Notes: generated from the sequence alone by a model not told the origin. DNA of 64,000 nucleotides from Dehalococcoidia bacterium (GCA_009841605.1 VXLM01000122.1:11198-75197), one strand, 5' to 3'. Numbered from the stretch's first letter, positions 1 through 12,285 are shown. Program-made: numbers and translations.

Positions 1-87
1 GTGATCTGGGCCGTAGTGGACACGCTGCTGCCGATCACGCTCGGCATTACCGGCTGTCACCTCTGGTGCGCGACCTCCGAGTCCTGA
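1..87 (+). CDS. 3' end of a hydrophobic, probably membrane, protein (partial)
   Basis: Frame 1 reads VIWAVVDTLLPITLGITGCHLWCATSES then TGA at 85-87. It is truncated by the window edge. Confidence 0.4.
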   Translation: MIWAVVDTLLPITLGITGCHLWCATSES

Positions 88-121
88 GGCAACACACCCG
101 CTAGCGAACGCGATAACCCGG

Positions 122-1630
122 CTATCGCACGAGATCCCGCGCCTCGACGATTGTCCTGAGCTTGGCCTCGGCGACCTGAGCCGAGGCCACGGGATTGTCG
201 GCGTACGTCGCGAATCCGCAATCGGGTGTCAGGAACACACGCTCCCGCCCGAACAGATCGACGGCGCGTGAGATTCGCTGCCGGACAACCTCCATCGGCT
301 CCACGTCCGCCGTCTTTGGGTTGACCACACCCACACCGATTCGCCGGTCGCCGGGTAGGGCACTGAGTACCTCCACGTCGCCCGCGCGCGGAGTCGCAAG
401 CTCTAGGAAGAGCGTGCCCACGTCCACCCGCTTCAGCACGTCGACGAGCGGCCCATATCCCCCGGTGAGCGCGGCAGACTCGTCCGGCGTCCAGTTCCCC
501 CTGCACACGTGAAGCCCGAGCCGCTCCTGGGGAAGGCCCCGCACGACCTCGTTCAGGAGACCTGCGGCGAAATCGAGTTCCGGGCCCGGTTCCAGTCTCT
601 CACTCAACGCCCCGCACATGAAGGTGCGTTCCGTGCTCTTCCCGCCTAGTACGACCTCCGTGAGCACCGGTTCATCGAACTGCACCAGCGTCGCCCCCGA
701 TGCCAAGAGGAAGTGCGTCTCCTCTCTCAGCACCCGGACGACATCACCCGCAAGCTCATCACGAGTCTCGTACGGACGCTCGGTCAGGCAGTCGAGCCAC
801 ATCGTACGGGTGAGCAGGTAAGGCCCCGGCAGGGCGACCTTCGCAGGTCGCTCGGAGTAGGTTCGTGCAAATTTAAACTCGTGGACGGCCAGAGAGCGAC
901 TTCGTCCGAGCTTGCCGTACACTACAGGATGCCGCACCTCGCCTGCGGGCACGTCGAGGGCCCGAAGTTCCCTACGGAACTTCTCAGCGTCATCAACCAT
1001 AGCGGTCAGATCGCTGAGCGGGATGAGCTGGCAGTTGTCCAGCAGTCTACCTACGAAACTGGCGTAGTTGTCCCTTCGCTGTTCCCCATCTGTGAGAACG
1101 TCCACGCCCGCTCGGATCTGGGCGTCGATAGAAAGCTGGACAGCGTCATCCGCCGTCGCTCGAAACTCCTCGTCACTCAGCCTTCCTTCGAGCCGGTCGT
1201 GTATCGCCCGAAGCATCCATCCCGGTCTCGGCCAGCTTCCTATGCCCATCACCGATAGCGGCGCTATCTCCGCCGCCTGCGAGGGCTTGGGAAGCGAATC
1301 GGGCACCGACACCTCCACCCGAAGCTGCTGTGAGAGGGCAGGGGAATCTGCTCGACTGCCAATCCTTTCGGTGAAGGCGCCCTTGCACACGAGGAAACTT
1401 CGCCTGCCGCCGCTCTTCGTCCAAGAGACCAGCTCGTTGCCGGTCAACCGACACCACGCGGGCAGCTCGATCTCCACGGTCGAGTCGGTGGAGAGTATCT
1501 CCAGCAGTCCGCCCGGCTCCAGTGGATCGATGTGCCTGCGAATCAGGAGAAGCAGCCCGCCGCCGCAATCAAGGTCGCCCCCGTCAAAGCTGGCGTCGGG
1601 TTCGTGGGTGTGCTGGTCGACGAGGTCCAT
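122..1630 (-). CDS. Fusion of an N-terminal TusA-like sulfur-carrier domain and a cobalamin-independent methionine synthase II (MetE C-terminal barrel) family enzyme
   Basis: The N-terminus FDGGDLDCGGGLLLLIRR...PAWCRLTGN is TusA-like. The C-terminal part has GIGSWPRP, TDGEQRR, VQFDEP and the Zn-ligand motifs HVCRGN, FLE and PDCGF. Confidence 0.85.
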   Translation of the reverse strand: MDLVDQHTHEPDASFDGGDLDCGGGLLLLIRRHIDPLEPGGLLEILSTDSTVEIELPAWCRLTGNELVSWTKSGGRRSFLVCKGAFTERIGSRADSPALSQQLRVEVSVPDSLPKPSQAAEIAPLSVMGIGSWPRPGWMLRAIHDRLEGRLSDEEFRATADDAVQLSIDAQIRAGVDVLTDGEQRRDNYASFVGRLLDNCQLIPLSDLTAMVDDAEKFRRELRALDVPAGEVRHPVVYGKLGRSRSLAVHEFKFARTYSERPAKVALPGPYLLTRTMWLDCLTERPYETRDELAGDVVRVLREETHFLLASGATLVQFDEPVLTEVVLGGKSTERTFMCGALSERLEPGPELDFAAGLLNEVVRGLPQERLGLHVCRGNWTPDESAALTGGYGPLVDVLKRVDVGTLFLELATPRAGDVEVLSALPGDRRIGVGVVNPKTADVEPMEVVRQRISRAVDLFGRERVFLTPDCGFATYADNPVASAQVAEAKLRTIVEARDLVR

Positions 1631-1714
1631 CGAATACGTATCGCTCAGGCCGTTGTCGACGGACGCCTAGACCCGTTTCCATTTGGATAGGACGGCCGGG
1701 CCGAAGGGGGAGTA

Positions 1715-1753
1715 TCCCCTCTCCCGTTGTGGGAGAGGGTTAGGGTGAGGGTG
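1715..1753. repeat. REP-like intergenic repeat (hairpin/G-quadruplex motif), copy 1
   Basis: TCCCCTCTCCCGTTGTGGGAGAGGGTTAGGGTGAGGGTG, with a near-identical copy at 4430-4468. Confidence 0.85.
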
Positions 1754-1792
1754 TTCTTTGAGTGGTAGACCAAAATATTATGGAACCGATGA

Positions 1793-2155
1793 TTAATACG
1801 TGACACTGGGAGTCCCGTCGGAGAGAAACTCCACCAGCTTCGCGCCTCCCACCATCACGGCCCCGTCGACGAGGTTGTTCTCATCAAGTCCCCGTTTCTT
1901 GAAGCAGGGCGCGCACACGTAGATCGTCCCTCCCCCTTCGGCAAAGACGTCCATCAGCTCCTTGAGTGGCATGAACCCCTCCTCGTGGACGTCGTCGACG
2001 TAGCCCTTCTGCGACACGCGGACGCCCTCGGTGCTCAGGAACACCATCGTCTCCTTCTCCGACCCGAGCGCGGCGTTGGCGACTACGAAGGCCACCGTCG
2101 CCTTGTCGGTATTGTCTTTGGCGCAGGTGAGACTGACGCAAAACTTTCCGGCCAT
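1793..2155 (-). CDS. DsrE/DsrF-like family protein
   Basis: 120 aa with the pattern KATVAFVVANAA...VFLSTEGV...IYVCAPCFKKRGL typical of the DsrE family. Confidence 0.85.
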   Translation of the reverse strand: MAGKFCVSLTCAKDNTDKATVAFVVANAALGSEKETMVFLSTEGVRVSQKGYVDDVHEEGFMPLKELMDVFAEGGGTIYVCAPCFKKRGLDENNLVDGAVMVGGAKLVEFLSDGTPSVTY

Positions 2156-2180
2156 GCTTAATTCCTCTCCGATTCGTCGT

Positions 2181-2411
2181 TTAGTTGCTTGTCTGTTCGA
2201 TCCAATAGTCCGGGTGCTCGGCGCGGACCAACCGCCGTCCGGTCAGTCTGCACCACGCGGGCAAGTCCTCCGGCGCTCCCAGGTCGCGAGTCGTTAGCTT
2301 GAGTACGTCCCCGGCGGCGAAATCACGCATCCGCGTTCTCAGCAGGATGAGTATCTCCCCGCAACCCATGTCGCCCGCATCCCACTCGTCGACGACGTTG
2401 AGGTCATCCAT
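2181..2411 (-). CDS. TusA family sulfur carrier protein
   Basis: 76 aa: WDAGDMGCGEILILLR...GDVLKLTTRDLGAPEDLPAWCRLTG, a TusA/SirA fold with a variant Cys motif. Confidence 0.85.
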   Translation of the reverse strand: MDDLNVVDEWDAGDMGCGEILILLRTRMRDFAAGDVLKLTTRDLGAPEDLPAWCRLTGRRLVRAEHPDYWIEQTSN

Positions 2412-2537
2412 CTGACGGAAGCCCGGAGTTACCCGACGCTGGGTAGGGTGATGATTTCATGCCTTTGCCGATGGAATTGGGTTCAGACTTCCCGCTCCGG
2501 AATGCTGGTGCCGAAGACGGCCCGAACAACGTGGAAC

Positions 2538-2567
2538 ATACTATTTCGGCCCTCCGATATCCGTCAA
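2538..2567 (-). promoter_or_regulatory. Putative sigma70 promoter for the tusA-dsrE-metE-like cluster
   Basis: On the minus strand, TTGACG-18 nt-TAGTAT lies about 125 nt upstream of the tusA ATG. Confidence 0.45.
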
Positions 2568-2660
2568 GCGCCGCCGCAAGCTTTCGTTTGCTTTATCATA
2601 GCGGTCTCTCCATGTAAGAGACTCTCGCTCAACAGTCATAATGTTGGAAGGACTTGCGGC

Positions 2661-3398
2661 ATGTACGACGTGACATCGACCCACCTCGACCTCGAACGCA
2701 GCAGCGTTGACACCGCCGCCCTGCCCGTCGGCGCCATCGAGCAGCACGGTCCGCACCTGCCGCTATCCGTCGACTGGTTTCAGGGCGAGATCGTGGCGAG
2801 GCAGGTGGCTGAGCGCCTCGACGCCTTCCTCCTCCCCGGCATTCCCTACGGCTGTTCGCAGGCCCACACGGGTTTCCGAGGCACGATATCTCTTGCCCCC
2901 GAAACGCTAGGAGCGGTCGTGACCGACATCGCAGAGAGTCTGCTGGAGGAGGGGTTCCGTCGCATCGCTGTGCTCAACTTCCACGGCGGCAACCTGATTC
3001 TGAAACTCGCCGTGCGCGACCTGAACCTCAGCCAGTCCATTGGCAAGGTCGTCCTCGTGAGCCCCGGTCAGGACGCAGGCGCAAAGCTGGACGACATACT
3101 GGACGGCTACCCTGACGAGCAGCACGCCGGTGAACTGGAGACCTCTGTCATGCTGCACCTAGCTCCCGGACAGGTGGGCGATTCTCGCGTCAACCACGTT
3201 CCCGACGTCGGCCCCGTGTACTTCGACTACCTGCCCATGAAGGAGTTCTGTCCCGACGGCGTATGGGGCCGCTCCAGCCTCGCCACGGCCGAGAAAGGAA
3301 GGCTGGTGATCGAGGGCATGGTGGACTACACCGTCGACTACCTCCAAGACACCTTCACGAGTCTTGGCGTGCCTGCCCAGAATTCCTCAGAGGATTGA
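2661..3398 (+). CDS. Creatininase family amidohydrolase
   Basis: Motifs LPVGAIEQHGPHLPLSVD, NFHGGN and HAGELETS. The likely start is ATG 2661. Confidence 0.9.
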   Translation: MYDVTSTHLDLERSSVDTAALPVGAIEQHGPHLPLSVDWFQGEIVARQVAERLDAFLLPGIPYGCSQAHTGFRGTISLAPETLGAVVTDIAESLLEEGFRRIAVLNFHGGNLILKLAVRDLNLSQSIGKVVLVSPGQDAGAKLDDILDGYPDEQHAGELETSVMLHLAPGQVGDSRVNHVPDVGPVYFDYLPMKEFCPDGVWGRSSLATAEKGRLVIEGMVDYTVDYLQDTFTSLGVPAQNSSED

Positions 3399-3403
3399 GC
3401 TAC

Positions 3404-4405
3404 ATGAAAATACTGGAAAGAGTGCTCATCGCGGGCGGGTCTGAGCCGCACTCGAGGGCGTTGGCGGGTGTCCAACAGCTAGAGAACGGTGACCTCCTGG
3501 TCGGCTACCGTCTCGCCAGCCGTCACGTCGTGGGCGACCACGACATGATCGACGATGGAGCCGTCGTGACAACGCGCTCCTCGGACAGCGGACGCACGTG
3601 GTCTGAGCCGCACCCTGTCGCTGCCCTGCCGGGCTGGGACTGCAGCGGCGGCAATCGCATGGTACAAACGCCCGACGGCGACCTCGTCATGTTCGTGATG
3701 AAGGCCCGTCGTGTCGGCTCGCCGGAGTCCCACGTCCACCCTATATGCTCCACCGACGGAGGCCTGACATGGGGCCCCATGGGTGAAGAGCTCGCCCTCT
3801 TCGACGCCTCCACCGAGCCTCACGCCATGGACCACGCCCTGATCACGAGTGACGGCGACTGGATGCTCCCCATCTACGGCGCGGACGAACCGGGTGGCAG
3901 CACCCACGCCGCCGTTGCGTTCTCATCCGACATGGGCAGGACGTGGGGACACAAGACGGTCGTGGCCCGTTCCTCCAAGATCATCTTCTACGAGCCCGCC
4001 GTGATAAGGCTGCCTGATGGCCGGTTCATGGCCGTGATCCGCACGCAGGAACCTCCCTTCGACAGCTACCTATCCTACTCCTCCGACGAGGGCCGCACGT
4101 GGACGGAGCCCCGTCCGCAGCCGTTTCAGGGTCAGACCCCGTTCCTCTTCCAACTCCGCTCCGGAGCCGTAGCCTGCTTCTATCGCGACCGCGACCCGAA
4201 GCGACCCGGTGTGAGCGTAAGCATGACTGCTGACGGCGGCGAAACGTGGAAGTATGCCGCGCAGGTCTATCAGGGAACCGACTGGAATTGCGGCTATCCC
4301 TCGGTGGTCCGACTCCCGGACGGGCGCCTCTTCTGCGTCTACTACTCCTGCTACGAGGCCTTCAACTCCGAGGTCCACGGTGTCTACCTCAGCGAGGATG
4401 AGTAA
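3404..4405 (+). CDS. Sialidase-like BNR/Asp-box beta-propeller protein
   Basis: Repeated Asp boxes SSDSGRTW, STDGGLTW, SSDMGRTW, SSDEGRTW, TADGGETW, and a C-terminal GYPS motif. Confidence 0.85.
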   Translation: MKILERVLIAGGSEPHSRALAGVQQLENGDLLVGYRLASRHVVGDHDMIDDGAVVTTRSSDSGRTWSEPHPVAALPGWDCSGGNRMVQTPDGDLVMFVMKARRVGSPESHVHPICSTDGGLTWGPMGEELALFDASTEPHAMDHALITSDGDWMLPIYGADEPGGSTHAAVAFSSDMGRTWGHKTVVARSSKIIFYEPAVIRLPDGRFMAVIRTQEPPFDSYLSYSSDEGRTWTEPRPQPFQGQTPFLFQLRSGAVACFYRDRDPKRPGVSVSMTADGGETWKYAAQVYQGTDWNCGYPSVVRLPDGRLFCVYYSCYEAFNSEVHGVYLSEDE

Positions 4406-4429
4406 CGGGAGTTGCTGCGACGAAGAAAG

Positions 4430-4468
4430 TCCCCTCTCCCGTCGTGGGAGAGGGCTAGGGTGAGGGTG
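4430..4468. repeat. REP-like intergenic repeat, copy 2
   Basis: TCCCCTCTCCCGTCGTGGGAGAGGGCTAGGGTGAGGGTG, with 2 mismatches to copy 1. Confidence 0.85.
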
Positions 4469-4625
4469 AACACAGCGATCACGTCACTCTACTGTACGTA
4501 ACGAAACTACAGTATTCAGGTAACAGCGGATTGGGCGATAATTGACCGTCCTGTTACAATCACGCCGGTCCTAGATTCGATGATGCACCAAATTTTCTCG
4601 GGCTATTGAGTAGGGGAGACGCATC

Positions 4626-6101
4626 ATGCCACTAATCCCAAAAGTGATGAGCACTCAGCATCCGGACAACGCCACGCCGGCCCCAAATGCCGACAAAAGG
4701 GGAGTGCTGAAAGGCGAAGGCGAGGTCGCCGAGGCCGTCAGCGTTTTCGCCATGGGTTGCGACGAGCAGATGTGGGACTCCGAGGGCAAGGAAGCCGACA
4801 ATCAAGTAGTCCGCAAGCTGCTCACAAACTACCCGGCCTTCTTTCGGCAGGAACGGTTGCTTGGTCGCGACATCGCCCTGACGCTGCGCGTGCCGAATCC
4901 GCGTATCGAGCGCGACATGCGAAAGTCGATGGTCGAGGCACTCCAGAGCGTGCCCTCGGCCTGGGATACGGTGCAAGGCTTCTATGGCGATGCGCAATTC
5001 GCTCCCATCCAGGAGGTCATCCTTCCCATGACGACCTCAGCCGAGGAGATATCCCTGGTTGAGGCCTACTATCGAAAGATCATCGTCGGACAGGAGGACC
5101 GGGACCTGCTCGACGGCCAGTCCGTCAAGGACTGGGTGGGAGAGTTCCTCCCAAAGCGCCTTCGGGTGATTCCCCTCATCGAGGACATGGAGCATATTCT
5201 CCACAGCGACCGCATCGTGGAGGAGTACGTTCGGGACAGGGACCTTCCGTACCAGCGGGTGTTTCTCGCTCGGAGCGACCCCGCGCTCAACTATGGCATC
5301 GTAGGTGCCGAACTGATCCTGAAAGTCGGACTCCTGCGTCTGCACAACCTTGAGCAAAAGCTGGGCATCCCCCTCTATCCCATCATCGGTGCCGGGTCGG
5401 TGCCGTTCCGGGGTCACCTGACCCCCGTGAACGTCGAACGCGCCTTCACCGAGTATCCTACCGCTCAGACCTTCACCGTCCAGTCCGCGTTCAAGTACGA
5501 CTACGGTCAGGACACCGTCCGCAACGCCATCTCGCAGATCCACGACCACGAGCGCGGCGAACCCGTACCCGTTGAGCAGGGGCGGGCCGTCGAGATAATT
5601 GAAAAGACAACCGCCGAGTATCAGTCACAGGTGCAGCGTCTGGCCGACACCATCAGGAACGTCTCGTCGCATGTCCCGAAACGCCGAGAACGCAAGATGC
5701 ACGTCGGACTCTTCGGGTATGGCCGCTCCCTCGGCGGCGTCGGCGGCGTGACCCTTCCTCGCGCCATCGGCTTCTCGGCCTCCCTCTACTCCATCGGCGT
5801 GCCGCCCGAGCTTCTTGGACTCGGTGCGCTCGACGATGACGATCTCGCCTTCGTCCGTGAAGTGTATCCCAGCTTGGACGGCGATCTGCGGGCGGCCCTG
5901 CAGTTCGCCAACGAGCGACACGTCAAAGAACTGCTCGGAGATCCCTACATGGACATTCTTGGCCGGTTCACCGACGAGTTGGACCGGGTTCACGAGGGCC
6001 TGACCAGCGCCATCTGGGCCAGCCTCAACCGCGACAGCTCTACCGTCGGGATCGACCACTACATCCAGGAGGCCGCCCACCTCCGTCTCTTCCTCGGCTA
6101 G
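4626..6101 (+). CDS. ppcA: Archaeal-type phosphoenolpyruvate carboxylase
   Basis: 491 aa with IPKVMSTQHPDN, EQMWDSEGKEAD, RVFLARSDPALNYG, PFRG, TVQSAF and GLFGYGR...LPRAIGF. Confidence 0.92.
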   Translation: MPLIPKVMSTQHPDNATPAPNADKRGVLKGEGEVAEAVSVFAMGCDEQMWDSEGKEADNQVVRKLLTNYPAFFRQERLLGRDIALTLRVPNPRIERDMRKSMVEALQSVPSAWDTVQGFYGDAQFAPIQEVILPMTTSAEEISLVEAYYRKIIVGQEDRDLLDGQSVKDWVGEFLPKRLRVIPLIEDMEHILHSDRIVEEYVRDRDLPYQRVFLARSDPALNYGIVGAELILKVGLLRLHNLEQKLGIPLYPIIGAGSVPFRGHLTPVNVERAFTEYPTAQTFTVQSAFKYDYGQDTVRNAISQIHDHERGEPVPVEQGRAVEIIEKTTAEYQSQVQRLADTIRNVSSHVPKRRERKMHVGLFGYGRSLGGVGGVTLPRAIGFSASLYSIGVPPELLGLGALDDDDLAFVREVYPSLDGDLRAALQFANERHVKELLGDPYMDILGRFTDELDRVHEGLTSAIWASLNRDSSTVGIDHYIQEAAHLRLFLG

Positions 6102-6105
6102 ACCC

Positions 6106-6762
6106 TCACTCCTCGCTTCCGTCGAGGTGGCGGGCATCGTTGAACCTGATGATGCTCCACAGATCAAAGTTGGTGCGCGTCCGGCCGTCTTCGTGCCACT
6201 TCTCCACGTCAATGGAGAACTCGAAAATAGCCGTGTTGCGAATCCTGAGAGTCCACAGCCGGTCCGTGCCCAGGAGCCGGTAGATGACATGGGTCAATAT
6301 GCCGCCGTGGGAGAAGACCAGCACCCGGTCATCGTTTTCGTGCTCGGAAATAAGCCTGTCCACGATAGTCCCCGCCCGAACCAGGATTTCATCGTGGGTC
6401 TCGGCCCCTTCTATTGCGTCAAAGTTGCCATTCGCCAGGAAGTCCCTTATTTGCTCGGGGTACCGCTCCTCGATCTCCGCCCAGGTGAGCCCGGAAAATG
6501 TTCCCACGTCGTGCTCCATCAGTTCGTCCCACAACTCGATCGGGTTGTCCCAGTTGGAAGAAGCGATCTGTGCGGTTTCGAGCACCCGGCTCAGCGGACT
6601 GGAGTAGATGTGCGTGGGCGTGTAGTCCTCACGCGCCAGCCGCGACTTCAATCGGTTAGCCTGTAAGCGGCCGGCATCCGATAACGGAAAGTCTGCTCGG
6701 CCCTGCCAACGCCCCTCGGAGTTCGCCGTGCTCTCGGCATGTCGAATTAGTATCAAGTTCAT
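6106..6762 (-). CDS. Histidine phosphatase (phosphoglycerate mutase) family protein
   Basis: LIRHAESTAN, SSPLSR and VFSHGG motifs. The start is reassigned to ATG 6762. Confidence 0.88.
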   Translation of the reverse strand: MNLILIRHAESTANSEGRWQGRADFPLSDAGRLQANRLKSRLAREDYTPTHIYSSPLSRVLETAQIASSNWDNPIELWDELMEHDVGTFSGLTWAEIEERYPEQIRDFLANGNFDAIEGAETHDEILVRAGTIVDRLISEHENDDRVLVFSHGGILTHVIYRLLGTDRLWTLRIRNTAIFEFSIDVEKWHEDGRTRTNFDLWSIIRFNDARHLDGSEE

Positions 6763-8672: not shown

Positions 8673-9971
8673 TTAGGGACCGCTGCTTGTCCACTCATCC
8701 GTGTCGGCGTCGTACGCTTCGACCGTCTTTTCGGTCGCCCCGCCAGCGACCAAAATCCGACCGTCGTTGAGCAGGGTCGCAGTGTGTCCGGAGCGCTCTA
8801 CTGACATCGGGGCGATCTCCGACCACGCCCAAGTCATTGGATCCATGTACTCCGCAGAGTTGACCGGACCGCTTGCGATTGACCCCCCAATGGCAATGAC
8901 TCTACCGTCCGGAAGCAGTGTGATGGTGTGCTTCATTCTTCCATGCACCGTGTCAGGGGCCTTGCTCCATTCGTTCGTCTTCGGATCGAACACTTCGCTT
9001 CCGGGAATTATGCCCCCCTTGGCTCTTGACATGCCGAAGCCTCCCGTGAACAAGACGGTGCCGTCTGAGAGCACGATCGCCGTATTCGCGAACGTCTTAC
9101 GGGCCATCGTAGCCGTCCGCATCCACTCGTCGATGGAGGGGTCGAATACCTCGGAAGACGCTAGCCCTTCGGCCTGATTGTACCCGCCCGCGATGAGCAC
9201 CCTGCCATCTTTCAGCACCAAGGCAAGGCCGCCGCTGTGCCCCTCGCGCATGTCGCTTGCTCGAGACCACGTGTCCGTTTGCGGGTCGTAGATTTCGGTC
9301 GACAGCAGCGCCCCTACAGCGGAGATGTTCGCAAGAATGCCCATGCCGCCCAGGGTTTGGCCTACTCCTCCTACGACTGCCACCCTGCCGTCGTGAAGAG
9401 AAAGCGCAAAGTGCCCCCGGCGCACCGTTCGCATGCCCTCGTGCTCCGACCACTTCCCTGTACTGGGATCGAATATCTCAGTTGTGCCTAATAGTTCGAG
9501 CTTTTCATTCATCCCGCCCGTTACCATCACTCGACCGTCCTTCAGGAGCGTGGCGGAATGTTCCGTTCGAGCCTCTTTCATCTCATCCGCCGCGAACCAG
9601 CGGTTCGTCTCAGGTTCGAATATCTCGACTGTACCGAGAGGATTGAACCCCTCATCCATTCCTCCCACTACCAACACACGACCGTCCCGAAGCAGTGTAG
9701 CGCTATGATTAACCCGAGATTGCATCATCGAGCCGAGGGAGTCCGAGCTCTCGGCGGTTGGAATTGCTTCGATAGTCGGCGTCGCACGCACTTCGGTGCC
9801 AATTGGGCTCGGGTTGACTTTAGGATCGGAGGGCAGTGTGTGATCGTCACCGGAGCTGCAGGCTGCCAGAGTGATGAGGGTAATGATTCCGGCAAGGGTC
9901 GCTGCTGACGCACACATTGACGAGCGCGCAGTCCGTCTCAATTGGCATTCACCGTAGGGGCGTCTAGGCAA
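8673..9971 (-). CDS. Kelch-repeat lipoprotein
   Basis: Lipobox LAAC and seven repeats of R..HSATLL.DGRVLV.GG...E.FDP...W. The start is uncertain. Confidence 0.85.
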   Translation of the reverse strand: MPRRPYGECQLRRTARSSMCASAATLAGIITLITLAACSSGDDHTLPSDPKVNPSPIGTEVRATPTIEAIPTAESSDSLGSMMQSRVNHSATLLRDGRVLVVGGMDEGFNPLGTVEIFEPETNRWFAADEMKEARTEHSATLLKDGRVMVTGGMNEKLELLGTTEIFDPSTGKWSEHEGMRTVRRGHFALSLHDGRVAVVGGVGQTLGGMGILANISAVGALLSTEIYDPQTDTWSRASDMREGHSGGLALVLKDGRVLIAGGYNQAEGLASSEVFDPSIDEWMRTATMARKTFANTAIVLSDGTVLFTGGFGMSRAKGGIIPGSEVFDPKTNEWSKAPDTVHGRMKHTITLLPDGRVIAIGGSIASGPVNSAEYMDPMTWAWSEIAPMSVERSGHTATLLNDGRILVAGGATEKTVEAYDADTDEWTSSGP

Positions 9972-10242
9972 ATTCGCACCGCTCCCTGAGATCAGACTGT
10001 CGATAATAGATATGGTGGTGTCTATGCGTACCCGGCTTCGCCGCAGTCCTTGAATCCGGATTTACGCCTGAGATGGGACCCTCTTGTAGACAGTATCACA
10101 TACACAGTGACGGCGATGGATGACAATTTGGGAAACGCTGAGCTACATTTCATGTATGTGAATCAGGGTGTTGCGGCAGCAGCGTTGTCTTTGGTCCCAT
10201 CAGATATTAGAACCCCATTGCCGAATGACCGTTGTACTTACT

Positions 10243-12285
10243 ATGAGCATATTTCACCGTTTGAGCCGAAAGAGTCGCACGCTGGTACCGGTTCTTATCG
10301 CGACCACAATTTTGACGATGCTGATAATCGCATCGTGCGGGCAGGCGGCGAAACGTCCCACGCCTACAGCTATGCCGCTTCCCGCTGACGAAGCCGCCGA
10401 GTCACCCACACCTGCCACGGCCGGTGCATCTCCGATTTCAGATTCACCTCCCGCGGCTACAGACGTTCCCGCTGTACCTGAAGCAGCTACGCCCGTTCCA
10501 CAGCCGACAGCATTAGCTAGTCCCTCCGCTGTCCTCCCTCGCAGTCTTCCACACGAACTGCCGGAGCGCGATCTTCACACTCTGGCCGAACGACTCGGTG
10601 GAGTGCCGAAAGGCTCGCACCGGACATTGGATGCCGTTCCCATCGAAGAGCAAGTTGGAGATCAACAACAGTTCTTCGTGGTAGACATTGATACCGACAC
10701 GACGTATGTGGTCGACGCGACGCTTCAGGTCGTCAGTCCCAACGCATACTGGTATGTGGATGAGGTGCTGGACATTTCGGACGAGGACCTGCGACTGGCC
10801 GCGAGCGAGTACGAAAGCAGCATTCGACCCCAGATGTTGGAGTCCTTTGGTGATGTGTGGAACCCGGGAGTGGACGGCGATTCCCGGCTGACCATCCTTC
10901 ACTCCGATCTCGGTGGTGGAGTTGCAGGGTACTTCGATTCGCGCAACGAATTCCCACGGCATACGCATCCCCATAGCAACGAGCGGGAAATGCTCTTCAT
11001 GGACGGGGCTGCGTTCCGGCCCGGCACGCCCGAATACATGAAGGTGTTGACTCATGAACTCCAGCACGCCATCCACTGGGCGCACGATCAGGGAGAGGAG
11101 GCTTGGATCAACGAGGGCCTGTCGGAAGTGGCAACGGAACTGGTCGGCTACTCGCCGACCTTCATCGAAGCATTCCTTGGAAGACCGCAGACTCAGCTCA
11201 CATTTTGGGTGGAAGGCGCCGGCAGCATACCTCACTATGGCGCCGCTACCCTCTTCATGCTCTATTTGCTCGAACACTACGGCGACTCCGGCAGCCTCCA
11301 TGAACTCATTGCCAACCCTGCCGATGGTGTCGAGGGCATCAACGATTTTCTCCGTCCGCATGGGAAAACATTCGACGAGGTATACGCCGACTGGATAGCC
11401 GCCAACTACCTCGATTCGGAGACGGGACTATACGGATATTCCGATCATCAAGTACAGGTCTCACGGATCGACCAAATTGACGAGCTAGGAAAGACGACGG
11501 GATACCTCGCGCCGTATTCATCGAGGTACTTTGATTTCTCAACACTGTCCGGTGACATCAAAATCGAATTTCAGGGCGATGCGACCACGCGGCAGGTGCC
11601 TACCAGGTGCCATAGTGGGGACCGGTGTTGGTGGGGCAACCGTGGCGACTCCATTGACACCACGCTGACCCGCGAGTTCGATCTCACGGACCTTTCGGAG
11701 GCGACGCTCGAATTCATGGTGTGGTTCGACATCGAGGAGGGTTGGGACTATGCCTACGTGGAGGCGTCACCCGACGGAGGTGAGACCTGGATCATCTTGG
11801 AGGGCGACCACACCACCGAGGAGAACCCAGTAGGCAACAGCTACGGACACGGCTACACGGGGGCGTCCCTAGGCTGGCTTCAAGAACGCATCGACCTCAC
11901 CCAATTTGCGGGATCAAAGCTGCTGGTCCGATTTGAGTACATTACCGATGCCGCGGTGTACGAGAATGGTCTCGTGATCGACGACATAGGAATACCGGAA
12001 CTCGAGTTCCTTGATGATGCTGAGAGCGACGGTGGGTGGAGCGCACGGGGATTCGAGCGTATCGACAACGTCGTGCCCTTGAATTACGTCGTGCTTGTCA
12101 TTGAGCGCGAGCGTGACGGGACCGACACCGTGCGCCGAATGGAAATCGACCAGCATGGGCACGGTGACATCGCGGTAAGAGGACTGGGCGACGAAGTGTG
12201 GAACACTGTCGTGGTGGTCTCACCCCTTGCCCGTAACACGCATCAACTCTCCCAATTCACCTTGAGGATACGGGAAGGCTCTTAG
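10243..12285 (+). CDS. Secreted or lipid-anchored Zn metallopeptidase with immune inhibitor A-like C-terminal domain
   Basis: Lipobox IASC, P/T/A-rich linker, HELQH...WINEGLSE zincin motif, and a WFDIEEGWDYAYVE...RFEYITD domain. Confidence 0.8.
   Translation: MSIFHRLSRKSRTLVPVLIATTILTMLIIASCGQAAKRPTPTAMPLPADEAAESPTPATAGASPISDSPPAATDVPAVPEAATPVPQPTALASPSAVLPRSLPHELPERDLHTLAERLGGVPKGSHRTLDAVPIEEQVGDQQQFFVVDIDTDTTYVVDATLQVVSPNAYWYVDEVLDISDEDLRLAASEYESSIRPQMLESFGDVWNPGVDGDSRLTILHSDLGGGVAGYFDSRNEFPRHTHPHSNEREMLFMDGAAFRPGTPEYMKVLTHELQHAIHWAHDQGEEAWINEGLSEVATELVGYSPTFIEAFLGRPQTQLTFWVEGAGSIPHYGAATLFMLYLLEHYGDSGSLHELIANPADGVEGINDFLRPHGKTFDEVYADWIAANYLDSETGLYGYSDHQVQVSRIDQIDELGKTTGYLAPYSSRYFDFSTLSGDIKIEFQGDATTRQVPTRCHSGDRCWWGNRGDSIDTTLTREFDLTDLSEATLEFMVWFDIEEGWDYAYVEASPDGGETWIILEGDHTTEENPVGNSYGHGYTGASLGWLQERIDLTQFAGSKLLVRFEYITDAAVYENGLVIDDIGIPELEFLDDAESDGGWSARGFERIDNVVPLNYVVLVIERERDGTDTVRRMEIDQHGHGDIAVRGLGDEVWNTVVVVSPLARNTHQLSQFTLRIREGS

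Follow-up and report, generated by a model that had tools for sequence, protein, structure and literature searches.

A TusA, DsrE, and TusA::MetE-type fusion gene unit as a candidate carrier-coupled homocysteine methyltransferase

The three genes and their conservation

The DNA analyzed here (the window) is a stretch of 64,000 nucleotides (nt) from a Dehalococcoidia bacterium (GCA_009841605.1, VXLM01000122.1:11198-75197), and positions are counted from its first letter. Near its start, three genes on the minus strand encode a standalone TusA-like carrier, a DsrE-family protein, and a 502-amino-acid (aa) fusion in which a second TusA domain is joined through a linker rich in Pro, Ser, and Ala to a single barrel of the MetE type. 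An earlier note on this DNA had read three such co-oriented genes from the sequence, and we found the open reading frames (ORFs) exactly where it had placed them; Pfam searches and alignments agree with its description of the fusion. The features are as follows.

2538 to 2567, minus strand: candidate sigma-70-like promoter (TTGACG-16/18-AATAGT/TAGTAT) upstream of TusA, from a consensus scan
2181 to 2411, minus strand: standalone TusA-like carrier, 76 aa (ORF and PF01206)
1793 to 2155, minus strand: DsrE-family protein, 120 aa (ORF and PF02635)
1631 to 1792, minus strand: spacer between DsrE and the fusion, 162 nt, containing a repetitive extragenic palindrome (REP)-like palindrome at 1718 to 1737
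122 to 1630, minus strand: TusA::single-barrel MetE fusion, 502 aa (ORF, PF01206, and PF01717, Meth_synt_2)
1361 to 1630, minus strand: N-terminal TusA-like domain of the fusion, residues 1 to 90 (PF01206)
1256 to 1360, minus strand: linker of the fusion, residues 91 to 125 (alignment and AlphaFold model)
122 to 1255, minus strand: Meth_synt_2 barrel of the fusion, residues 126 to 502 and the stop codon (PF01717)

The three genes almost certainly form a functional unit. At least 498 relatives were confirmed in species-representative genomes, and all locus counts out of 80 refer to the best 80 loci. These loci (61 to 99% identity) come from Dehalococcoidia (Chloroflexota), Terriglobia (Acidobacteriota), Latescibacterota, Binatia (Binatota), Planctomycetota, Verrucomicrobiota, Myxococcota, Eisenbacteria, Melainabacteria, and many Burkholderiales (Pseudomonadota), including the isolate Paraburkholderia sp. 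J67; the module spans at least eight phyla. By tblastn, DsrE lies upstream of the fusion on the same strand in 79 loci, the exception being L081, and the standalone TusA is found in 74. Of the six loci without a TusA match, three lie at contig edges (L063, L088, and L102) and three lack the gene (L081, L095, and L107); in L078, the standalone TusA is downstream on the opposite strand. The triad stays intact where flanking genes differ, and no other neighbor is conserved: de novo clustering of 1402 ORFs gave 303 clusters within 3 genes on either side, of which the most recurrent are lineage specific. An ABC transporter cluster ("c10") that we considered as a conserved partner proved to be a generic ATPase cluster that includes ZnuC. 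The earlier note had staked its idea on the fusion and the gene linkage recurring in other genomes, and both do.

The fusion itself is highly constrained. The 120 best homologues are all 497 to 529 aa long and at least 72% identical, and few of the representatives clustered at 50% identity are full-length fused proteins; among these, P0121 (59%) and P0124 (49%) keep all key residues. In a barrel-domain tree from a quick maximum-likelihood IQ-TREE search, built on 40 fused and 14 non-fused rows, every fused barrel falls in a single clade (SH-aLRT 100, stem 1.09) with short internal branches and interleaved phyla, which argues for a single fusion event followed by horizontal spread under strong constraint. 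The module is patchy at short range, being present in 7 of 15 other genomes of the window's genus. Nearly identical operon DNA was found mostly in sponge metagenomes, and the module is widespread in sponge-associated, soil, and freshwater lineages; its carriers also include bacteria that are tractable in culture (Paracoccus versutus, P. ferrooxidans, and Paraburkholderia sp. J67).

The barrel matches Meth_synt_2 (PF01717) with 105.8 bits. Its best sequence match in the PDB is 3RPD (MesD; E = 1.7e-21), and the top Foldseek matches are MetE C-terminal barrels, 3RPD, and 1YPX. Pfam found no Meth_synt_1 domain, the folate-binding N-terminal barrel, in the fusion. All NCBIfam methionine synthase models score far under their cutoffs (PRK04326 is best with 151 against 406, followed by 100 against 313, 95 against 392, and 86 against 258), and the canonical MetE model TIGR01371 gives 67.8 bits against a cutoff of 929.95. 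We aligned the barrel to 3RPD, 1YPX, and 1T7L (Thermotoga maritima MetE), with residue roles as described by Price 2021 (PMC7857596). H374 and C376 ("HVC"), E410 ("LELA"), and C471 ("PDC") are the equivalents of the Escherichia coli MetE zinc ligands H641, C643, E665, and C726, and S132, E183, and D319 map to the homocysteine-binding residues Ser22, Glu73, and Asp188 of 3RPD; the same residues define core methionine synthases in Price 2021. The ligands that the earlier note had called intact are present in the translation and conserved among homologues: S132, E183, D319, and H374 are found in 54/54 rows (40 fused and 14 non-fused), and C376, E410, and C471 are found in 40/40 fused rows. Because the homocysteine-binding triad is invariant, the zinc-bound thiol is most simply homocysteine, and we consider it likely that the barrel is an active Zn/homocysteine-site alkyltransferase.

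The fused rows also carry clade-specific cysteines, C281 (40/40), C339 (40/40), and C200 (36/40), which are found in 0/14, 1/14, and 0/14, respectively, of the more distant non-fused barrels. C339 is kept in 103/103 proteins over all fetched loci, including 11 loci of a sister clade described below, and is therefore present in both clades. C281 lies three residues past W278, which aligns with a T. maritima MetE Trp that we take to stack on folate; this would place C281 on the methyl-donor side of the barrel.

Both TusA copies barely exceed the PF01206 gathering cutoff of 28.6 bits, the standalone protein with 29.2 bits and residues 27 to 83 of the fusion with 29.1 bits. Their translations contain "GDMGCGE" and "PAWC" (standalone) and "GDLDCGGG" and "PAWC" (fusion). 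Cys17 and Cys54 of the standalone TusA align with E. coli TusA Cys19 and Cys56, as do Cys22 and Cys60 of the fusion when the domain is aligned at full length to 1DCJ and 3LVJ. Cys17 is a cysteine in 95/95 tblastn alignments, and Cys22 is one in 40/40 aligned fusions and in 91/92 across the fetched loci, the exception being a pseudogene in L106. The C60 position is kept in 34/40 and is Ala or Ser in the remaining 6/40. Since Cys60 and Cys54 align with E. coli Cys56, a second cysteine is normal for TusA, and Aquifex TusA is described as having the same pair with a second cysteine that does not bind sulfur (PMC11094781). The replacement of CPxP by GD(L/M)(D/G)CG in both copies, as claimed previously, stands, but the "PAWC" cysteine, which had been singled out as well, is nothing special.

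Two deviating copies were seen. In a Burkholderiales metagenome-assembled genome (MAG), L106 positions 9726 to 11249 hold a decaying fusion copy with an in-frame TAG at E44 and the changes C22 to S and C281 to Y. The metagenomic representative P0128 (fused, 46% identity) keeps the TusA-domain cysteines but has lost H374 and C471 of the zinc site and is perhaps a non-catalytic derivative.

The DsrE protein, encoded by a single-copy gene in the source genome, scores 51.4 bits against PF02635 and is of a type auto-named "predicted peroxiredoxin" in the ESM Atlas. Its motif "VCAPCF" contains C81-x-P-C84, which is invariant as C[AS]PC (20/20 aligned proteins and 91/91 across the fetched loci). The best solved relative is 3MC3, an archaeal DsrE3A (PMC11094781), with whose active-site Cys C81 aligns. 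The DsrE3A subgroup has a Cys-X7-Cys motif (PMC4175335), which was not found here; C-x-P-C stands instead in 20/20.

In the linker, a P/S/A-rich part that varies among homologues is followed by a conserved "VEVSIPxSLPxP" segment. The AlphaFold model of the fusion (mean predicted local distance difference test [pLDDT] score 87.0; predicted template modeling score 0.88) falls below a pLDDT of 50 solely at residues 91 to 101 and reaches 95 to 96 at residues 111 to 130. With disorder confined to residues 91 to 101, the TusA domain would sit on a short tether. An ESM Atlas comparison recovered the same fusion architecture.

The closest non-fused barrels are about 40 to 46% identical to the fusion barrel and form a rare sister clade; 7 of 301 evenly sampled phylum genomes match at E ≤ 1e-70, and two of the 7 are fused forms. 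In 8 of 11 sister loci (L025 to L028, L116, L117, L121, and L123), an OsmC-like gene lies directly 3' of the barrel gene on the same strand, and in three of these (L025, L027, and L028) a tandem rhodanese comes next. The OsmC-like protein has one invariant Cys, with "SPV" in place of the OsmC "CPV", and its sole NCBIfam match, under the cutoff, is an "OsmC-related (seleno)protein" domain. (A "194-aa unknown" ORF in L025 was discarded as an antisense artifact; the true gene there is the OsmC-like one.) The OsmC-like/rhodanese set was found in 0/80 fused loci, making the two partner sets mutually exclusive. We conclude that two alternative partner sets serve one barrel lineage and, since the non-fused sister barrels have partners of their own, that carrier coupling is older than the fusion. 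Each set combines a sulfane-sulfur or selenium transferase with a cysteine redox protein, namely, TusA with a CxPC DsrE or rhodanese with a one-Cys OsmC-like protein.

Genomic context in methionine and selenium metabolism

The source genome encodes four more single-barrel Meth_synt_2 paralogues (contigs C41, C12, C122, and C80; 31 to 34% identical to the fusion) along with three PF02574 homocysteine methyltransferases, and it has no MetH activation domain and no canonical MetE N-terminal barrel, which makes for an unusual methionine synthase repertoire. Among five tested genomes, the MetH activation domain was found in none, a convincing canonical MetE N-terminal barrel was lacking in four (G027 has a PF08267 match of 72.5 bits), and two to four PF02574 enzymes were found in each. 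Every congener has PF01053 enzymes apart from G008, itself without the triad; as congeners with and without the triad have them, their presence does not track it. Phylogenetic profiles of MetH, MetE, and PF02574 were also tried as a link to the module and dropped, as they gave no discrimination. The module is accessory and not the sole methionine route. The earlier note had suggested an alternative methionine route as one possibility; with the module present in 7 of 15 congeners and PF02574 enzymes in every genome tested, such a route would be an additional one.

A search of plasmid proteins also located the fusion in Paracoccus, on chromids of P. versutus (two records) and P. ferrooxidans, with 57 to 58% identity over 96% of the length. 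On P. ferrooxidans pFER4 (L124, CP038202.1), a LysR gene, two "hypothetical" ORFs, a transglutaminase gene, and a divergent cysteine desulfurase gene precede the module, which continues in the order TusA, DsrE, a 168-aa ORF, a 522-aa ORF, the fusion, selA, and trxB. NCBIfam scores are 478 for the SufS-family desulfurase (cutoff 475), 565 for SelA (268), and 386 for TrxB (343). The cysteine desulfurase beside this module, together with OsmC in L077 and beside the sister barrels, bears out the neighbors that the earlier note had predicted. Three kilobases from the module (L124 2496 to 3065, minus strand), two coding sequences annotated as "hypothetical protein" are halves of one UGSC-family gene, in which an in-frame TGA read as selenocysteine (Sec) gives "...ANUGSC..."; the pair is, as predicted from this reading frame, one selenoprotein gene. 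As a separate observation, the two ORFs inserted in the Paracoccus module (L124 6853 to 8937) recur as a family-less pair in an Oxalobacteraceae MAG (L078 6569 to 8555) with 49 to 53% identity; the protein of about 168 aa has an N-terminal hydrophobic segment, and the one of about 522 aa has a signal-peptide-like start.

Selenium genes also occur next to the module elsewhere. By tblastn, SelA, SelB, or SelD was found in the flanks of 14/80 loci and additionally of L120 and L125: SelB in L069, L073, L074, L076, L087, L089, L090, L093, L099, L102, L105, and L120; SelA in L102; and SelD in L094 (0.64 kb past the fusion), L101, L104, and L125. These matches concern three different genes and come from at least five independent lineages; by chance, roughly 0.7 to 1.2 loci would be expected, as estimated from flank lengths on the assumption of three unlinked genes per genome. 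A HemN-like/SelB/NurA flanking block had first been read as unrelated synteny and was re-evaluated after the Paracoccus result. Across genomes, SelD and/or SelA was found in 43/44 triad genomes examined and SelD in 28/30 non-Chloroflexi triad genomes; G365, one of the two without a SelD match, carries both selA and selB on the same contig as the triad. Six Burkholderiales triad carriers have SelD in four cases, SelA in three, and at least one of them in all six, and the Burkholderiales sample as a whole has SelD in 113/151 and SelA in 39/151 genomes (112/150 and 38/150 without G396, which is flagged unpublished). Because this background is high, co-occurrence with SelD and SelA is uninformative. 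Taken as a whole, the genomic context is at least as indicative of selenium as of sulfur.

As a side observation, in each of the 40 genomes of the window's order that have SelD, including the source genome, its gene contains a single in-frame TGA, and SelD is therefore itself a selenoprotein in this order.

Proposed function and rival explanations

Our literature searches found no paper describing a TusA::MetE fusion or a TusA-DsrE-fusion triad, nor one on the combination of OsmC, rhodanese, and methionine synthase, in keeping with the remark in the earlier note that no characterized system has this architecture. TusA is not mentioned in the main texts of Price 2021 (PMC7857596), Rao 2024 (PMC10861871), GapMind 2026 (PMC13759103), or a 2025 glycine-betaine paper, nor is DsrE in that of Price 2021, and "methionine synthase" and "MetE" do not appear in the main text of Lin 2015 (PMC5322559). 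Several known systems nevertheless resemble parts of the unit. The core methionine synthases MesA to MesD (PMC7857596) share the single barrel without a folate N-terminal barrel, the zinc ligands, and the homocysteine Ser/Glu/Asp, and MesD (3RPD) also needs a dedicated protein partner, MesX. They differ in that the partners here are TusA and DsrE rather than a corrinoid protein or DUF1852 and in that the barrel here has an N-terminal TusA fusion, the extra invariant C281 and C339, and NCBIfam scores far under the cutoffs. In the algal and protist MetE-fusion (Rao 2024, PMC10861871), whose methyl donor was not identified in that work, a core-MetE barrel is likewise fused to a thiol swinging-arm carrier and a disulfide-oxidoreductase-type module; however, that system is eukaryotic, its carrier is a phosphopantetheine PP-binding domain, its C-terminal module is CzcO/Pyr_redox_2, and it has no TusA or DsrE.

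On the carrier side, the TusA-DsrEFH-DsrC, TusA-TusBCD, and sHdr TusA/DsrE3 relays (PMC11094781, PMC4175335), in which a cysteine bears the cargo as a persulfide or thiosulfonate, share adjacent genes, aligned active cysteines, and the TusA and DsrE folds. Unlike these relays, the present unit has no CPXP, its DsrE has C-x2-C instead of a single Cys or C-x7-C, no Dsr, sHdr, or tRNA thiolation genes are near the module, and the terminal acceptor would be a MetE-type zinc barrel. YedF (TIGR03527) is described in Lin 2015 (PMC5322559) as a SirA/TusA-like domain with a DsrE-like domain bearing CGXC, found almost only in SelD organisms, with genes adjoining those for Sec lyase and sel genes. The likeness lies in the pairing of a TusA/SirA-like and a DsrE-like part with CxxC, the unit's C[AS]PC being invariant; the differences are that the YedF domains are fused and carry CPXP and CGXC, whereas those here are encoded individually and have CG[ED]x and C[AS]PC, and that YedF has no MetE-type barrel partner. 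Under selenium depletion, Methanococcus maripaludis raises TusA/TusD transcripts by 4.5 to 4.6 log2 and those of the SdmABC methyl-selenide methyltransferases (annotated as "uroporphyrinogen decarboxylases") by 5.6 to 7.8 log2 (PMC11097638). SdmABC obtains selenium from methylated selenides with zinc-type methyltransferases of the MetE/UroD superfamily and a thiol as the final methyl acceptor, and the module may resemble it mechanistically; however, SdmABC is archaeal, needs the corrinoid protein SdmA, uses coenzyme M as the acceptor, has no TusA fusion, and has a UroD-like MT2 rather than Meth_synt_2 (PMC11097638).

From the observed domain content, residue conservation, synteny, monophyly, and sel gene clustering, we infer each chemical step of the following model. 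We hypothesize that the unit is an enzyme system complete in itself and spread by horizontal transfer, namely, a carrier-coupled homocysteine methyltransferase able to work with either chalcogen, and we give this model as a whole a probability of roughly 0.4. The barrel, having neither a folate nor a corrinoid domain, would bind L-homocysteine on zinc as core methionine synthases do. Its methyl-folate side in canonical MetE would here be lined by C281, C339, and mostly C200 and be served by the tethered TusA domain, with Cys22 as the hand-over point and the standalone TusA and CxPC DsrE as the other members of a cysteine relay. It is reasonably probable that such a relay exchanges sulfur or selenium with the active site. 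The carriers are placed on the leaving-group side because TusA, DsrE, and rhodanese carry only the chalcogen, and a methyl-chalcogenide donor (CH3-Se- or CH3-S-) would fit both a homocysteine nucleophile and chalcogen carriers on that side. This donor, probably a methyl-selenide, might be free or held on Cys22 as a mixed selenenyl-sulfide or disulfide. The zinc-bound homocysteine thiolate would accept the methyl group to give methionine, leaving the carrier with the demethylated chalcogen in perselenide or persulfide form; Sec lyases and rhodaneses are known to hand selenium on in this form. The chalcogen would then pass via DsrE (CxPC) and TusA to SelD (selenium) or to cellular sulfur acceptors (sulfur), and thioredoxin reductase-type reductants would reset the relay.

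Whether the physiological role is related to selenium we regard as close to an even bet. Methylated selenium species are the dominant dissolved forms of selenium in many waters, and on chemical grounds selenolate-type leaving groups should make methyl transfer far easier for selenium than for sulfur. In its most specific form, which we put forward tentatively, the module would be a selenium-salvaging methionine synthase that strips methyl groups from methylselenol, dimethyl(di)selenide, or Se-methyl amino acids onto zinc-homocysteine without folate or corrinoid and passes the selenium via Cys22, DsrE, and TusA to SelD; the exact chemistry of methyl-selenide demethylation is doubtful.

A number of points weigh against the proposed model and its link to selenium. 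Thiolates normally attack sulfur or selenium and not carbon, and we know of no enzyme that moves a methyl group to a thiolate from a methyl-selenenylsulfide or methyl-disulfide. No sel genes were found in the flanks of 66/80 loci or in any of the 11 sister loci, and SelA, SelB, and SelD of the source genome sit on contigs other than that of the module; the window also has no tRNA gene. The window's order uses Sec almost universally (SelA in 38/41 and SelD in 40/41 genomes), no enrichment of SelD or SelA with the module was seen where a background was measured, and one triad genome of uncertain completeness, G348, showed neither SelA nor SelD. Neither TusA nor DsrE matches TIGR03527 (YedF) at E ≤ 0.01, and this model exceeds its cutoff in 0/5 triad genomes, as also in 0/14 controls. 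No Cys/Sec exchange occurs at any conserved module cysteine over all fetched loci. Finally, CPXP, the characteristic active-site motif of TusA (PMC11094781), is absent from both copies, which have C-G-E-I (standalone) and C-G-G-G (fusion).

The relay might instead run on sulfur, from a cysteine desulfurase or rhodanese through TusA, DsrE, and the TusA domain to the zinc site, where a carrier persulfide would be alkylated by an activated homoserine occupying the amino-acid pocket and the resulting carrier-homocysteine mixed disulfide resolved by the CxPC DsrE or OsmC-like protein. This would yield a pyridoxal phosphate (PLP)-independent, sulfane-sulfur-dependent homocysteine synthase; in a variant, CH3-S-S-Cys22 formed from methanethiol would methylate homocysteine. 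TusA, DsrE, and rhodanese are established sulfane-sulfur carriers (PMC11094781, PMC4175335), the Paracoccus operon has the SufS-type desulfurase and TrxB at its flanks, a gene for a MetY-like PLP enzyme diverges from the module in Binatia L095, the PhnD-type transporter in the L103 operon could import a phospho- or phosphono-amino acid, and the sister barrels pair with rhodanese and have no sel genes nearby. MetM/MetO offers a parallel, as it makes homocysteine from O-phosphohomoserine with sulfur delivered by a carrier protein, although that carrier is a ThiS-like thiocarboxylate and the protein families are unrelated (PMC13759103). We nonetheless consider a sulfur-only pathway of this kind unlikely: the invariant homocysteine triad should fit zinc-bound homocysteine better than a bimolecular nucleophilic substitution with a bulky leaving group, the module shows no anticorrelation with PF01053 sulfhydrylases/lyases, and the clustering with selA, selB, and selD is left unexplained. 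The sulfur relay of the earlier note, which did not consider selenium, is supported in part; carriers and zinc barrel do form a conserved unit, but a carrier persulfide as the zinc thiol is at odds with the invariant triad.

The carriers might also have no part in the chemistry, the barrel being an ordinary accessory methionine synthase, independent of B12 and folate, that takes a small donor (S-methylmethionine, dimethylsulfoniopropionate, or betaine) while the carriers protect, reduce, or regulate the zinc-thiolate site, much as MesX may serve MesD or the extra domains the algal MetE-fusion. The scarcity of MetH activation domains and MetE N-terminal barrels noted above would be consistent with this, as would the patchy, transferable distribution that is typical of alternative methionine synthases, the partner dependence of other core-MetE barrels (MesD/MesX, PMC7857596; algal PP-binding and oxidoreductase domains, PMC10861871), the "predicted peroxiredoxin" name of the DsrE type, and the occasional redoxin and OsmC neighbors. 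Yet a tethered carrier with an invariant Cys and two carrier genes kept in 74 to 79 of 80 loci would be heavy for maintenance alone, the partners are sulfur/selenium transferases (TusA and rhodanese) and not classic thiol reductants, PF02574 homocysteine methyltransferases are already at hand in all tested genomes, and neither a SAM nor a cobalamin riboswitch precedes the operon, so that we find this explanation quite unlikely. Detoxification or buffering, in which the zinc site would methylate or cap a carrier persulfide or perselenide to give methanethiol or methylselenol or would transfer sulfur or selenium to give homocysteine persulfide, seems very unlikely. DsrE4-type proteins have been proposed to detoxify reactive sulfur species (PMC11094781), selenium detoxification was suggested for the CxxC DsrE-like domain of YedF by Lin 2015 (PMC5322559), methylation is the usual route of selenium detoxification (PMC11097638), and OsmC, redoxin, and TrxB neighbors occur. 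However, Pfam found no methyl-donor-binding domain or SAM-type fold in the unit, the homocysteine/methionine pocket would need to hold a sulfonium donor, and no persulfide dioxygenase, SQR, or CstR-type regulator is among the annotated neighbors (89 proteins of the 303 clusters). The same annotated neighbors include no alkene or coenzyme M genes.

Returning to the carrier-coupled methyltransferase, its consequences depend on how far the model holds. A relay that does end at the zinc site would mean a new mode of MetE-type catalysis with a protein-borne co-substrate, bearing on what replaces methyl-folate, and would add a third independent core barrel that depends on partners to the cases of MesD/MesX and the algal MetE-fusion. 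Were the link to selenium to hold, the module would become a candidate for the supply of bacterial selenide from organic or methylated selenium and for selenium trafficking to SelD without loss to sulfur metabolism. Should selenium salvage itself be true, the unit would be the missing bacterial methyl-selenide demethylase together with a dedicated relay keeping selenium apart from the much more abundant sulfur, and the sister barrel with its OsmC-like protein and rhodanese would be another implementation of this principle. The unit combines known kinds of component (core-MetE enzymes and TusA/DsrE relays), and there is a realistic chance that it represents a new selenium-trafficking route.

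Expression and local surroundings

In the promoter consensus scan, three sites were found where 0.4 would be expected. Downstream of the candidate promoter, the unique operon sequence at positions 2305 to 2508 is matched with 0 to 1 mismatch by two short metatranscriptome contigs, both from one study, which is a weak hint of operon expression. No Rfam match at E ≤ 1 was found in window positions 1 to 4000, and an Rfam scan of 11 diverse loci returned just a tRNA and a tmRNA fragment. The spacer between DsrE and the fusion (162 nt, against about 20 to 45 nt in most other loci) has the same length in the 99% identical L029. A REP-like palindrome, CTCTCCCACAACGGGAGAGG (0 to 1 mismatch), occurs in two intergenic spacers, at 1718 to 1737 and 4433 to 4452, and several metatranscriptome contigs match the palindrome alone, with loose ends on both sides, indicating that it is a dispersed repeat; the copy between DsrE and the fusion accounts for the long spacer.

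No obviously related gene was found in the 11 kb of contig past the fusion, which lies at the window edge. On the other side, an archaeal-type phosphoenolpyruvate carboxylase gene (window 4626 to 6101; PF14010, 558 bits), a creatininase gene (2448 to 3398), and a BNR-repeat protein gene (3263 to 4405) are syntenic beside the triad throughout the genus. In three related Dehalococcoidia (L039, L040, and L042), genes for a Fur-family regulator (Zur) and ZnuA lie directly upstream of the triad (at about 6.7 to 8.7 kb of each locus), and this adjacency could reflect zinc-responsive control of the module. In L103, the inserted genes of a PhnD-type ABC transporter (3911 to 6516) separate DsrE from the fusion; they encode a substrate-binding protein (TIGR01098, 158 bits against a cutoff of 112), a permease, and an ATPase whose stop codon overlaps the fusion start, and homologous permease and ATPase genes are near the fusion in L081. 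Other neighbors are scattered, including sulfatase and PhyH clusters in Latescibacterota, major facilitator superfamily transporters in Burkholderiales, an FGE-sulfatase in L098 and L108, and, as mentioned above, a redoxin (L085), OsmC (L077), and the MetY-like enzyme of L095.

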